In this document: positions 9,346-14,875 of the stretch, in pieces | How the letters are laid out: each line of letters begins with the position of its first letter | Numbering within the stretch: the first letter of the stretch is position 1 | Notes under the pieces: model-generated | What the model was told of the DNA's origin: nothing | Database searches by the model: none | The model's input: the letters and a program-made list of their open reading frames with translations, nothing else | Source: Escherichia coli O127:H6 str. E2348/69 | GTDB lineage: Bacteria; Pseudomonadota; Gammaproteobacteria; Enterobacterales; Enterobacteriaceae | Direction: 5' to 3' (one strand) | Assembly: GCF_000026545.1 (NCBI RefSeq) | Contig: NC_011601.1 | Length of the DNA: 64,000 nucleotides | Position numbers and translations under genes: made by a program

Positions 9346-9566
9346 AAAATTAAATAATTTCATTGGTTTTATTAATGTACTTGAGATGAATATTTTCACC
9401 AGATTAGCATGACGGTGCATTCTTCAAGGCATATATGGTTAATAGTATCTTCAGTAGCATGCATAAGTATTGAGATTTTTTATGCCAGCTACGAATATAT
9501 TGCATATCTCATTCTCTGTAAGATTTCTTATTAGCACTTAGCCATTTCTAGTTAAAAGGATTAATT

Positions 9567-10449
9567 ATGAGTTTTGCAGCTACTGATTATCCATCCGGCG
9601 CACTAGCTGGATCGGGTACACACAATGTGACTTTGAGCGGCAGCGCAGTTCCTGATGGAATGTTACTGTTTGCAAACTTAGGGGGGACAGAAACAGTAGG
9701 GGAACTATTTACTTATTCTATTAAATTAAAAACTCCTGACATCCTGAACCTGGACTATGTTTCCCCCGCAGCCAACCTGCAGCTCAAACCGATGGTGGGC
9801 AAAGATCTGTGCGTCAATATCGAACTGGATGGCGGCGGAAAACGGTATATCAGCGGGCTGGTGACGGCGGCACGCGTGGCCGGTCATCAAGGACGCTCGG
9901 TGGTGTATGAACTGCGACTCGAACCGTGGTTAAAAACACTGACCCACACTAGTGACTACAAAGCGTTTCAGAATAAAAACGTGGTGGACATCCTGGATGA
10001 GGTACTGGATGAGTACCCCTGGCCAGTGGAAAAACGATTGGTAGAAAACTATCCGACTCGCGCCTGGCAGGTGCAGTACGGTGAAACAGATTTCGATTTT
10101 ATTCAGCGCCTGATGCAGGAGTGGGGTATCTACTGGTGGTTTGAGCACAACGAGAACAGTCATACGTTAGTGCTGGCTGATGCCATTAATGTCCACAAGG
10201 CATGCGCAGATTCGCCGCTGGTGTGTTATTACCAGAAAGGGCTGAAACTGGACAAGGAGTTTATCCATACCATCACAGCAAATGAAAGCCTGCGCAGCGG
10301 ACAGTGGGTGCTGAATGATTTCGACTTTATGAAGCCGCGTTCACTGCTGAAGAGCACTGTGGCTAATCCGCGTGAAACCGGCCTTGCTGAATATGAGTAC
10401 TACGAATGGCCGGGAGACTACTTCACAAAGAGTGAAGGTGAAATGCTGA
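9567..10449 (+). pseudogene. vgrG: vgrG (T6SS spike) N-terminal fragment
   Basis: gp27-like N-terminal region incl. ...[28 protein letters not shown]...; homology ends near residue ~300 and the frame then runs into nonsense; the gp5/OB-fold and C-terminal parts are absent. Confidence 0.7.
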
Positions 10450-11606
10450 CACGCATCCGAATGGAAGAACAGCGTAGCCCCGGTAGTCGGGTACAGGGCA
10501 GCGGCCAGGCAGCTTTACGACCCCGGCGGGCGACTGAAGCGCAGGGAGACATACAGCGGGATGCGCGGGGTGGTTCCGGACACGTTCACGGACCGGCAGT
10601 ACAGCTACAGCGGCGAGGATGAACTGCTGAAGACGCGGCACAGCCGGCGGGGGGAAACGGACTACTTCTATGACACCACGGGGCGCATCACGGCGTGTCG
10701 CTCGGAGGATGAGGGGTATCTGGCGAGCTGGGAGTACGACGCGGCGGGCAACCTGCTGGACAGGCGCGCGGGGGGAAGGGCCACGGCAGAAAACAGCGTG
10801 GTGCTGTTCAACCGGCTGATGTCTTACCGTGGTGTGCACTACCGTTATGACGAATTTGGCCGTGCGGTGGAAAAGGAGGGGCGGAGCGGAACACAGAGTT
10901 ACCGTTATGATGCGGAACACCGGATGGTGGAAGTGACGACAGCGCGGGAGACATACCGGTATGTGTACGATGCGCTGGGGAGGCGGACGGAAAACAGCAC
11001 ATCAGCCCTGACGGTAAACCGTACAACCGGACAAAATTTTTATGGGACGGAATGCGGCTGGCGCAGGAGAACAGGCCGGAGGGAATAAGCAGCCTGTATA
11101 TCTACAGCGACCCGGGAAGTTATGAACCGCTGGCGCGGTTGGATAAGGCGGGGAAAGAGGGACCGAACCGGATACTGTATTTTCACACGGATGTGAACGG
11201 TGCTCCGGAAGAGATGACGGACAGCAACGGGAAAATTGTGTGGGAGACGGGGTATCAGGTCTGGGGTAACACGATACAGGAGAAGGACCACGGCGGGGTG
11301 GAGCAGAACCTGCGATACCAGGGGCAGTACCTCGACAGGGAAACGGGGCTGCACTACAATCTGCACAGGTACTATGATCCGGATGTCGGGCGGTTCATGG
11401 TAACGGACCCGATAGGGCTGCGGGGCGGGTTAAACTTATATGCTTATGCGCCGAATCCGTTAACGTATATTGATCCTCTTGGTCTTTGTAAATTAAGGGG
11501 AAGTAATGGGCGCTTTAGAAGTGCACAGAATATTCAGGAAGAAATAGGCGGCCTGCCCAATTTTTCAGGAAAAACCCCCAGGGCAAATACGGCAAACTTT
11601 GCGTAA
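10450..11606 (+). pseudogene. rhs 3' core fragment with frameshift, ending in the DPxGL junction and a short C-terminal tip
   Basis: YD repeats in frame 1 ([10 protein letters not shown]..., YRYDEFGRAVEKEG..., YRYVYDALGRRTE) continue in frame 0 (PYNRTKFLWDGMRLAQE...LHYNLHRYYDPDVGRFMVTDPIGL...PLTYIDPLGL); frame switch at roughly 10980..11000 near an A run. Confidence 0.7.
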
Positions 11607-11916
11607 TCGAGTTTATTCTTCGGTACAAGCGCATAGTGGAGGAGAGGTCTGGACAAAAGCATTACCTGACGGAAATACTGTTGCAGTGAGAATTGACCCA
11701 GCAAATCCTCGCTCACCTTCACATTATGCCGATGCTGTACCTCATGCTCATATTGAAACAGTTCCAACATCCAGTGTTTCTAATGGGAATTATCGTCCGA
11801 GAGACGTGATGGGCAGGCATACTGCCACTGGTGGGGGGTCTGACCGAGGAACGAATCCGAATTATAACGCTGATGTTCACATTCCAATGTCTCCGGGACG
11901 ATCCCCATATAATTAA
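11599..11916 (+). CDS. uncertain ORF; possibly an out-of-frame continuation of the Rhs C-terminal toxin domain
   Basis: 105 aa ORF with TTG start and no clear RBS, beginning just downstream of A/C homopolymer runs at the end of the rhs tip. Confidence 0.25.
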   Translation: MRNRVYSSVQAHSGGEVWTKALPDGNTVAVRIDPANPRSPSHYADAVPHAHIETVPTSSVSNGNYRPRDVMGRHTATGGGSDRGTNPNYNADVHIPMSPGRSPYN

Positions 11917-11927
11917 TGTGAGGTTTT

Positions 11928-12206
11928 ATGAATATCCGAAATCAATATAATGAAGCCTTAAATAAATTAGATGTTGATGTTAATGATGGTTTGAGAGATT
12001 TAATAAACATATATTGTGTGGCTATTGATTCTTTTGAAAATGATATCGTTGACTCGATTGCTTTATACGTGATTGATATGGAAAATAAAGATACTTGTCG
12101 ATATCTACAAGAAATATTATCAGAGAATAAAGATCCTTATTTAGTAAAAGAGTTTAATGTATGGATAAAAGAAATTAAGAAAAATATTAAAATAAAAGCC
12201 GGGTAA
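11928..12206 (+). CDS. small AT-rich ORF in the position of an Rhs immunity gene
   Basis: 92 aa; GTGAGG RBS 6 nt upstream of ATG; very low GC; directly downstream of the rhs C-terminal tip. Confidence 0.45.
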   Translation: MNIRNQYNEALNKLDVDVNDGLRDLINIYCVAIDSFENDIVDSIALYVIDMENKDTCRYLQEILSENKDPYLVKEFNVWIKEIKKNIKIKAG

Positions 12207-12232
12207 GAAATTAAATCTTCCCGGCTTTTTAT
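12196..12232. terminator. rho-independent terminator candidate
   Basis: AAGCCGGG...CCCGGCTT stem followed by TTTTT. Confidence 0.4.
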
Positions 12233-12235
12233 TAT

Positions 12236-12436
12236 TTAACTCTCGTTCAGCACACTAAACATCGCGTCACACATCCCCTTAATCGCCTGTTTAACCTGAT
12301 AAAGTTCCCTGCGCAGTTCCTGTACTTCGTTGTTATCCGCAAGCAGGATCAGACAACCTTTCGAGATCTTCACGGTAACGCCCGTGCCGATCTCAAATCC
12401 CGCTTCTCTCAGCCATTTGGCGCTGATTTTGAGCAC
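12236..12436 (-). pseudogene. 5'-truncated SymE-like (AbrB/SpoVT-fold) toxin homolog
   Basis: ...PVLKISAKWLREAGFEIGTGVTVKISKGCLILLADN... resembles the SymE core [33 protein letters not shown] (recalled); an in-frame stop lies just upstream, so ~45 N-terminal residues are missing. Confidence 0.5.
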
Positions 12437-12450
12437 TGGCGCGTGATGCA

Positions 12451-12657
12451 GTGGGCCAGCTCATGGCAAAGGAGACAGCAGATAGCCGTACGGAATATGT
12501 CTATGATGCGGCAGACCTGCTACTGGAAATCCGCTGCAGATGGTCGTATGCCCGGGAAACGGACGCACCGGAGATTATCTGCTTCAGTTACGACAGACTG
12601 GGACAGTTGCTGACCGAGGAGACGGTGCAAAAATTCAAAATTATCCATTTAACCTAA
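12451..12657 (+). pseudogene. orphan Rhs YD-repeat fragment
   Basis: 68 aa ORF with YD-repeat-like units (TEYVYDAADLLLEI, FSYDRLGQLL); no full gene context. Confidence 0.35.
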
Positions 12658-12959
12658 AAGTTCGTTGAGTTTTTCTGCATTGCCGGTAATTTTGGCATCT
12701 CCTTTGCCCGTGGCTTGTTTCAGCGTCTATAATGGGCGTTAATAAATTGGCAAGTCGGGAACTTGATGTTTTCTTAATGGTATGTTGGCAGAAGAATATG
12801 TTCTGCAATTTGACGATTTGTTGATGCTTTATTTAAAAGGGTGTAGTGCAAATATCTACAATTTCAAGTAGGCATTATTGTCGTAAAAACGCATCACCGG
12901 ACACACGACATTCACAATGTATGTTAATTTTACTGACAACTTTCAAAAGGAGCACAATC

Positions 12960-13187
12960 ATGCCGCACATCGACATTAAATGTTTTCCGCGTGAGCTGGA
13001 CGAACAACAAAAAGCAGCGCTTGCTGCAGATATTACCGACGTTATTATTCGCCATCTGAACAGTAAAGATAGCTCGATAAGCATTTCTCTACAGCAGATT
13101 CAACCAGAATCCTGGCAAGCTATCTGGGATGCCGAAATCGCGCCCCAAATGGAGGCTTTGATAAAGAAACCCGGTTACAGCATGTAA
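12960..13187 (+). CDS. pptA: tautomerase PptA (4-oxalocrotonate tautomerase family)
   Basis: ORF 12846..13187; start placed at [33 protein letters not shown]... (N-terminal Pro after Met). Confidence 0.85.
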
Positions 13188-13192
13188 AATGC

Positions 13193-13762
13193 TTAACCTG
13201 CCGTAACTCGCTTACCACTGGTAACAAACGTGCCAGCACCTAAATGATGCAACGTATTGAGCTTATCATCATCAAACTGCCAGCGGCCTTCGACAAATAC
13301 CCGTGCGTCTGCCGCTGCTGATACCACTTCGCCAAATAGCGTATCGTATTTTTCTTGCGCGGAAGTTGCAGGTAGCAGGCGACACTCCATCCACGCCAGA
13401 CATTTTTCCTCGACTAGCGGCAAACCAAGCACCGGGCCTCTCACTACCGGAATGCCGTAGCAATTAAATTTATCTTCTTCACGACCCGACACACTTCCCA
13501 CCGCCCACGTCCAGTTAGTCGCCGCAACGCCCGGGATAACGATGCCAAACTTACCGTTACGTTCAATCAACTCCCTGGTCCATGTCGATTTATCTACCAC
13601 AATCGCTACGCGTGGCGGTTCAAACTCTACGGGCATAGACCAGGCTGCTGCCATAATGTTACGCCGCTGGGATTGCTCATCGGAACTGGTGATCATGACA
13701 GTTGGGCCATGATTTAACAGACGGCTGGCATGGTGTAATTCGACGGGAATGAATTGGCTCAC
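13193..13762 (-). CDS. yddH: flavin reductase-like protein
   Basis: 189 aa ORF; conserved position between pptA and nhoA. Confidence 0.8.
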   Translation of the reverse strand: MSQFIPVELHHASRLLNHGPTVMITSSDEQSQRRNIMAAAWSMPVEFEPPRVAIVVDKSTWTRELIERNGKFGIVIPGVAATNWTWAVGSVSGREEDKFNCYGIPVVRGPVLGLPLVEEKCLAWMECRLLPATSAQEKYDTLFGEVVSAAADARVFVEGRWQFDDDKLNTLHHLGAGTFVTSGKRVTAG

Positions 13763-14789: not shown

Positions 14790-14875
14790 CAGGTTGCCGG
14801 ATGTGGCGTAAATGCCTTATCCGGCATACATTAGCCCGGTTGTAGACCTGATAAGCGAAGCGCATCAGGCAACGG
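14790..14875. repeat. BIME: two REP palindromic units
   Basis: TGCCGGATGTGGCGTAAATGCCTTATCCGGCATAC and GTAGACCTGATAAGCGAAGCGCATCAGGCA match REP consensus families. Confidence 0.55.

Follow-up and report, generated by a model that had tools for sequence, protein, structure and literature searches.

According to our analysis, the minus-strand ORF at 12236..12436 is a 5'-truncated SymE-family gene within a degenerate Rhs islet, and it is probably inert, being the 3' two-thirds of a SymE-family gene of the kind that stands at the far edge of Rhs cassettes in Enterobacteriaceae; the judgment on its activity comes from its anatomy. The setting is the rhsE islet (ansP–pptA) of the EPEC strain E2348/69, where the ORF is flanked, in the PGAP annotation, by an Rhs pseudogene and by pptA. 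Coordinates refer to the window, that is, the whole stretch of 64,000 nucleotides that was analysed, unless a locus of another genome is named. The features on which the analysis is based are the following:

9567..10505, plus strand: 5' half of vgrG, annotated by PGAP as "phage late control D family protein", with the C-terminus missing
10508..11916, plus strand: 3' part of an Rhs core with a C-terminal toxin region, frameshifted and incomplete according to PGAP
11928..12206, plus strand: 92-aa ORF, candidate Rhs immunity gene, annotated by PGAP as hypothetical protein WP_001026259.1
12194..12229, no strand assigned: G+C-rich hairpin flanked by A and T runs, found by folding
12236..12436, minus strand: 5'-truncated SymE-family ORF of 66 codons with a GTG start (RefSeq WP_000913065.1)
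12366..12451, plus strand: sub-threshold match to the Rfam isrA model (31.6 bits against a gathering threshold of 51, E = 4e-5)
12434..12439, no strand assigned: junction of a 141-bp gap relative to strain SC434, placed by alignment and blastn breakpoints
about 12436..12630, plus strand: orphan Rhs core fragment without N- and C-termini, an incomplete pseudogene in PGAP
12461..12463, minus strand: in-frame stop nine codons 5' of the GTG, which closes the frame (in-frame translation of 12236-12658)
L010 14177-14305 and L005 6072-6200, antisense to SymE: matches to Rfam RF01385 (isrA)

The 66-aa product of the ORF, MLKISAKWLREAGFEIGTGVTVKISKGCLILLADNNEVQELRRELYQVKQAIKGMCDAMFSVLNES, is named "SymE family type I addiction module toxin" in RefSeq, and PGAP treats the ORF as an intact CDS without a pseudogene flag. 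Membership in the SymE family is indicated by the Pfam profile PF08845 (SymE_toxin), which was matched at 35.6 bits (E = 1e-8), more than the gathering threshold of 29; the alignment covers profile positions 23-52 of 54 only, so the domain is incomplete. The NCBIfam model PRK13605 (SymE) was aligned over positions 42-88 of 113 (E = 1.3e-8), and residues 40-88 of K-12 SymE, as translated from NC_000913.3, showed 41% identity to the ORF with a pairwise E-value of 6e-11. These three scores place the likeness to SymE far beyond chance. The sequence-only reading had recognized in this ORF the core of a SymE/AbrB-fold toxin and had named a lack of profile similarity to the SymE family as the result that would speak against it; the similarity was found, and the assignment stands. 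Orthology to K-12 symE, on the other hand, is not indicated, as the PRK13605 score of 34.7 bits falls below the equivalog cut-off of 132.

The short length of the ORF, its contact with Rhs sequence and its weak GTG start might suggest that an ORF antisense to Rhs-related DNA resembles SymE by chance. We consider the probability of this to be close to nil, since it is contradicted by the PF08845 and pairwise scores, by the 238 homologues recovered in a database search, nearly all with PF08845, by the 95.5% nucleotide identity of the ORF to intact 97-aa genes (those of the EC77 units described below), and by the position of the Rhs homology, which begins only at 12436, outside the ORF.

The homologues range from 53 to 131 aa and originate from Escherichia, Salmonella, Citrobacter, Kosakonia, and Phytobacter. 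Full-length homologues, for which the sequence-only reading had advised a search, were found among them: the complete forms have 97-109 aa, the 97-aa form being P0006 (232 member sequences), while the 109-aa forms include P0086, P0092, and P0108. The C-terminal 66 residues are common to the ORF and to the full-length relatives P0006 and P0086/P0092, at 64-98% identity, and in the protein alignment the ORF corresponds to residues 32-97 of its closest full-length relative, which has 97 aa. The full-length relatives have an additional conserved N-terminus (MAEH.ITPEV..SKTQRR..VGY), and the intact genes begin with an ATG placed after a Shine-Dalgarno sequence (GAGGT or AAGGT). The truncation proposed from the sequence is therefore real, whereas the figure of about 45 missing residues is approximate, because it depends on the reference: 39 residues are absent in comparison to K-12 SymE, 31 in comparison to the 97-aa relative and 43 in comparison to the 109-aa forms.

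In the AF2 model of the 97-aa relative, the elements β1 (19-24), β2 (27-35), α (37-42), β3 (51-56), β4 (59-64) and a helix (69-95) can be mapped approximately, given the low pLDDT of 61; this low value might be expected for a monomer modelled of a fold that is dimeric in MazE. The top Foldseek matches to the model were MazE, VapB, and AbrB, all of them weak (E > 0.1), and a search of PDB sequences with the family profile returned nothing significant. The AF2/Foldseek picture agrees with the AbrB/MazE-fold assignment of SymE (Kawano et al., 2007; PMC1891008). The intact members are thus modelled with an AbrB/MazE-like β-β-α-β-β core followed by a C-terminal helix, the latter being predicted to mediate oligomerization in SymE (PMC11894785). 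Because its first residue corresponds to position 32 of the 97-aa relative, the ORF is devoid of β1 and most of β2, and a third of the SymE fold is missing. K-12 SymE, the gene for which is located in the hsd/mcr region, is currently annotated as a nucleoid-associated DNA-binding protein (also PMC11894785), and in the summary of Thompson et al. (2022) given in PMC11894785 it condenses the nucleoid; by homology to it, the intact members should be DNA-binding proteins that are toxic if over-produced.

On the 5' side of the GTG, the in-frame stop and the opposite-strand Rhs-repeat fragment are both present, as had been noticed from the letters alone. The plus-strand ORF 12451..12657 matched the Pfam profile RHS_repeat (PF05593; E = 1.4e-5, 25.8 bits against a threshold of 22) and the YD repeat TIGR01643 (24.7 bits against a threshold of 15.8). 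This mechanically delimited ORF extends past the Rhs homology into unrelated flanking DNA; the homology itself covers 12436-12629, for which the intact 4017-nt Rhs gene at the corresponding chromosomal locus (L011) of strain Z1323HEC0016 shows 87.6% identity over its nt 2941-3134. Together, the profiles and the Rhs core homology assign the fragment 12436-12630 to the YD/RHS-repeat proteins. With about 65 residues, it does not amount to a complete Rhs protein, for which an N-terminal domain, a full core, the PxxxxDPxGL motif and a C-terminal toxin would be expected. Full-length Rhs genes of other genomes also contain matches to it.

Two junctions are involved in the truncation. The first is an older SymE::Rhs composite: in SC434, C11, strain 104 and the second copy of L005, the SymE homology ends at about codon 23 of the 97-aa gene and is followed by a 27-nt filler and then by antisense Rhs core that begins at nt 2845 of the Rhs gene in L011. 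An identical junction of the 80-aa SymE with an orphan Rhs was seen in L010, L005 and SC434. PGAP annotates the SymE copies bearing this junction as 80-aa proteins with a GTG start. As the composite is common to several loci and strains at 86-89% identity, it appears to be old and to have been propagated. The second junction is lineage-specific: by the blastn breakpoints, window 12106-12439 corresponds to SC434 6001-6336 and window 12436-13500 to SC434 6474-7538. The DNA missing at the resulting 141-bp gap comprises the SymE codons 5' of the present GTG, the 27-nt filler and about 87 nt of Rhs core. This allele is carried by 14 of the 5426 complete E. coli genomes, and the frame of the ORF is open in all 14.

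The gene was thus truncated in two steps. The old junction replaced approximately the first 23 SymE codons with the 27-nt filler and antisense Rhs core, and the 141-bp loss later took a further portion of the SymE 5' end as well as some of the Rhs fragment. The earlier suggestion that the gene was inactivated by the same rearrangements that affected the Rhs sequence is reasonable insofar as the 141-bp gap struck both, and it has to be extended from one step to two. A clean deletion mediated by repeats was considered and rejected: the heptamer TCACCGG is located near both ends of the 141 bp of SC434, yet the junction, in which GAGCAC is joined to TGGCGCG, is not the exact product of such an event. 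The identity to SC434 is 96.4% to the left of the junction and 99.7% to the right of it, and because of this step the junction may be a recombination breakpoint at which a diverged segment was imported, instead of a simple deletion.

The rest of the islet has decayed as well. Window 8310-10505 corresponds to L011 390-2586, and the next window segment continues directly with L011 7488 onward (10508-10882 being equivalent to L011 7488-7862), so that a deletion of about 4.9 kb relative to L011 joins the 5' half of vgrG, which ends at 10505, to the Rhs core remnant that begins at 10508. This deletion removed a DcrB-like gene and most of rhs. The fused Rhs core part represents approximately the last 1 kb of the core; within 10508..11916, the RHS core-end domain with the DPxGL motif (PF03527) was recognized with E = 2.2e-15. 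The toxin region that follows DPxGL (11508-11916) is split over two frames, in ORFs 11052..11606 and 11599..11916, and has neither a PGAP annotation nor a significant Pfam match. For the 92-aa ORF at 11928..12206 no significant Pfam or NCBIfam match was obtained either, and its position after the Rhs C-terminal region makes it a candidate Rhs immunity gene.

The hairpin at 12194..12229 has a predicted folding energy of -18.8 kcal/mol on the plus strand and -20.2 kcal/mol on the minus strand (z = -5.5 and -5.0), and it looks like a bidirectional terminator for the immunity gene on the plus strand and the SymE remnant on the minus strand. The homology to other SymE-bearing Rhs cassettes begins at 12194-12198, and thus the hairpin marks the left edge of the conserved DNA.

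In K-12, H-rpt elements replace the segment at this locus, homology to the window is regained only at 12871, and no SymE-like gene was found in the comparison of the K-12 rhsE locus. The H-rpt region that the sequence-only reading had placed downstream of K-12 rhsE has no counterpart here. We also noted that K-12 lacks about 210 bp of the window (12658-12870, from the Rhs fragment to the pptA promoter region); its ydcC H-rpt element stops about 10 bp short of the point at which homology resumes (12871).

Several signals that an active gene would be expected to carry were sought. A simple consensus scan of 11800-13000 revealed no minus-strand sigma-70-like promoter, and no LexA box (CTGT-N8-ACAG, one mismatch allowed) was found in 12200-13000, so that SOS control is not indicated. 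There is no Shine-Dalgarno motif before the GTG, either in GCATCACGCGCCA or in the 24 bases GCTGGCCCACTGCATCACGCGCCA. No homologues of HTH, primase or integrase/recombinase proteins were detected anywhere in the 64-kb window, and tblastn of the relatives' HTH protein against the whole window gave nothing at E ≤ 0.01, i.e., the type II-like HTH–SymE pair is not present here. In addition, residues at which the family shows no or almost no variation have been replaced in this lineage, for example E by K in KISEGC, and R by C and G by A in KGMRDGMF. We consider the remnant probably inert on account of the missing Shine-Dalgarno sequence, promoter, LexA box and partners, the loss of part of the fold, the replacements at conserved sites and the decayed islet around it. 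Three observations point in the other direction, namely the annotation of an intact CDS by PGAP, the frame that is open in the 14 complete genomes and a dN/dS of 0.21 in comparison to SC434, although the latter value is derived from only nine substitutions, most of which may predate the truncation.

These observations would suit a functional short SymE-like protein that is translated from the GTG and acts through its half-domain and C-terminal helix, for instance by forming hetero-oligomers with canonical SymE/AbrB-fold proteins. The open frame, the PGAP annotation and the pairwise dN/dS below 1 are consistent with such a protein, as are the retention of the C-terminal helix (with its predicted role in oligomerization in SymE; PMC11894785) and the recurrence of 66-aa variants in protein databases (P0037, P0040, and P0043, the last on 13 contigs). 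Nevertheless, we regard it as improbable, considering that the ORF has no Shine-Dalgarno sequence, promoter-like site or LexA box, that it has lost β1 and most of β2 from a fold that is dimeric and interdigitated, that conserved positions are replaced, that the allele is limited to the 14 of 5426 complete genomes and that all of the surrounding genes are decayed. An inert remnant accounts for these features better.

The region was also searched with RNA models. The symR model gave no match in 12150-12750, even at E ≤ 1, and hence this hallmark of a type I toxin–antitoxin pair is missing; the DNA corresponding to the SymR region is deleted in the E2348/69 copy. Among the full-length relatives, the symR model was aligned across the start codon of the L005 SymE copy with 49.9 bits (E = 2.8e-8), below the gathering threshold of 61, and the Rfam model isrA (RF01385) was matched opposite the 109-aa copies with 117.6 and 101 bits, above the gathering threshold of 51. 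Read as its reverse complement, the isrA consensus encodes the SymE motif WQEEAGFETGRSVTVK; the Rfam isrA family is the antisense strand of SymE-family coding sequence. In Salmonella, IsrA is cis-antisense to the 5' end of STM0294.1n, and the levels of the two are inverse (Padalon-Brauch et al., 2008; PMC2330248); STM0294.1n had no clear functional annotation in 2008 (PMC2330248). Because the consensus reads as the SymE motif backwards, STM0294.1n is probably a SymE-family gene.

Within the window, the isrA match at 12366..12451 includes only the first ~50 model positions, with the 3' 80 nt of isrA missing. We rejected it as an sRNA, as it is below the threshold and corresponds to conserved coding sequence read backwards. 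The Ssr1 model (RF02627) was matched on the plus strand of 12150-12500 with 176 bits against a gathering threshold of 820, over model positions 308-654 only. This 654-nt model spans the entire Shigella intergenic region beside an Rhs gene, whereas on Northern blots the RNA measures about 150 nt, with its start close to model position 131 (PMC4782007). The 3' ~250 nt of the model are the antisense of an unannotated SymE remnant adjoining the Shigella Rhs gene; therefore, partial Ssr1 matches in E. coli mark SymE remnants and not the ~150-nt RNA. Ssr1 was accordingly rejected as an sRNA lead, the matched part (308-654) being the antisense of the Shigella SymE remnant and lying outside the ~150-nt RNA.

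One could still suppose that what functions here is an IsrA/Ssr1-type RNA on the plus strand and that the ORF is conserved only as its template. Both models do align across the ORF (isrA with 31.6 bits and E = 4e-5, Ssr1 with 176 bits), IsrA has been experimentally detected with levels inverse to those of STM0294.1n (PMC2330248), and Ssr1 has been detected beside an Rhs gene in Shigella (PMC4782007). We find this very unlikely, however: the scores are far under the gathering thresholds of 51 and 820, the stretch of isrA that aligns is SymE coding sequence backwards without the 3' 80 nt, and the Ssr1 match (308-654) misses the ~150-nt RNA that starts at about 131. Furthermore, there is no plus-strand promoter-like site in 11800-12700, and the strong terminator hairpin at 12194-12229 lies upstream. 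The antisense sRNA partner that the sequence-only reading had proposed to look for was thus not found in the window, where symR had no match and isrA remained sub-threshold. Its description of the ORF as a type I toxin homolog is accurate with respect to the SymE family, whereas "type I" is a family label only, with no SymR-like match here. As a separate observation, the naRNA4 model (RF02564) gave partial matches in two other loci (L002 8826-8864 and L003 8569-8607) with about 40 bits against a gathering threshold of 59.5; they align about half of the model and are located between nhoA and yddE, at the equivalent of window ~14790-14870.

The surroundings of the remnant belong to a recurring pattern. 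In other strains, an Rhs C-terminal region (Rhs-CT) and an immunity gene are followed by a convergent SymE-family gene. At the rhsC locus of strain 104, a complete Rhs gene with its immunity gene comes first, then an 80-aa SymE, and directly against the latter an orphan Rhs that lacks its N-terminal part, which is the layout seen in E2348/69; further along, there is a second orphan Rhs and then a 109-aa SymE. In L005, L006, and EC77 (L014), a Cro/cI-type HTH gene is placed directly 5' of SymE, and a ~990-aa primase and a XerC-like recombinase are found in the flanks. EC77 (NZ_CP196708.1 1652201-1680401) has at least four tandem units of 6.6-8.8 kb each, in which the XerC-like recombinase, the ~990-aa primase, the HTH gene and the 97-aa SymE are followed by a convergent immunity gene and Rhs-CT fragment, and then by a short Rhs fragment and a 160-aa hypothetical protein. 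The backbone of the tandem units is conserved and the CT/immunity cargo is variable; L005 and L006 have the same architecture. Units of the EC77 type have the appearance of mobile carriers of Rhs toxin cassettes.

Neighborhoods of SymE-family genes with cHTH, Prim-Hel, and RHS/haemagglutinin genes were listed previously (Kawano et al., 2007; PMC1891008, Fig. 7A), and SymE genes adjoining T6SS/Rhs or orphan hcp clusters have been reported for Erwinia (PMC7764402) and Pantoea (PMC3942780); the SymE–Rhs association is therefore already published. A literature search for an integrase/primase/Rhs cassette element found nothing relevant. The EC77 tandem units, the architecture of L005 and L006 and the cassette homology that starts exactly at the terminator hairpin lead us to put forward, as a tentative and rather unlikely reading, that the SymE remnant is the scar of an element with a tyrosine recombinase, a primase-helicase and an HTH–SymE pair that delivered Rhs-CT/immunity cassettes into rhs loci. 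If the remnant is such a scar, the conserved 3' end of SymE and the terminator may be the fixed right-hand border of the variable cargo, and the "C-terminal displacement" of E. coli Rhs would be driven at least in part by an integrative element, not by homologous recombination alone.

As for the intact genes, SymE is read convergently to the Rhs-CT/immunity pair, with a hairpin terminator that appears to serve both, and it is usually located behind a Cro/cI-type HTH gene, whose product is the presumed repressor or antitoxin. Antisense-RNA signatures overlap it, with the SymR-like match at the start codon and the IsrA family along the N-terminal half. This upstream HTH protein and/or cis-antisense RNAs would keep SymE off. 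In the simplest reading, its most likely role would be that of an addiction or stabilizing module of the mobile Rhs cassette.

Overall, the SymE remnant is already annotated, of a known kind, ordinary and probably inert, and the most fitting classification is that of a pseudogene-like remnant within the Rhs-linked SymE subfamily. Its interest is that it records how the Rhs islet of the reference EPEC strain decayed. In addition, the RefSeq label of a type I toxin sits on a gene that is without a third of its codons and without every regulatory partner, and counts of toxin–antitoxin genes that include such entries are therefore inflated. Two by-products of the analysis concern the family as a whole: the Rfam family isrA and the 3' part of Ssr1 represent SymE-family genes of Rhs loci read on the antisense strand, and intact SymE copies occupy the edge of integrase/primase units in which Rhs toxin cassettes are carried.

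Among the known systems, K-12 SymE/SymR (yjiW/ryjC; Kawano et al., 2007; PMC1891008) has PF08845 in common with the remnant and shares with it the aligned core W-L-x-x-A-G-F ... V-x-V-K ... G-C at 41% identity over residues 40-88, and in the full-length Rhs-linked relatives a SymR-like match is preserved at the start codon. The remnant differs in not being an ortholog, in its location in an Rhs islet and not in the hsd/mcr region, and in the absence of the 39 N-terminal residues, the SymR region and the LexA box. The Rhs/T6SS-linked SymE genes, often accompanied by cHTH and Prim-Hel, are the subfamily of origin, as illustrated by the 95.5% nucleotide identity to the 97-aa SymE of EC77 and by the convergent position after an Rhs-CT/immunity pair, which is also seen for the remnant; the latter, however, has lost 31 codons and has no HTH, primase or integrase. 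The Salmonella pair IsrA/STM0294.1n (RF01385) is paralleled by the above-gathering isrA matches opposite the 109-aa E. coli SymE copies, whereas the remnant gives ~50 model positions and 31.6 bits.

Finally, orphan Rhs fragments and the displacement of rhs C-termini were reportedly described by Jackson et al. in 2009. The fragment at 12436-12630 differs from an orphan of this kind in being cut at both ends and in having neither toxin nor immunity genes, but, like the orphan of strain 104, it was left downstream of a newer Rhs-CT/immunity pair.
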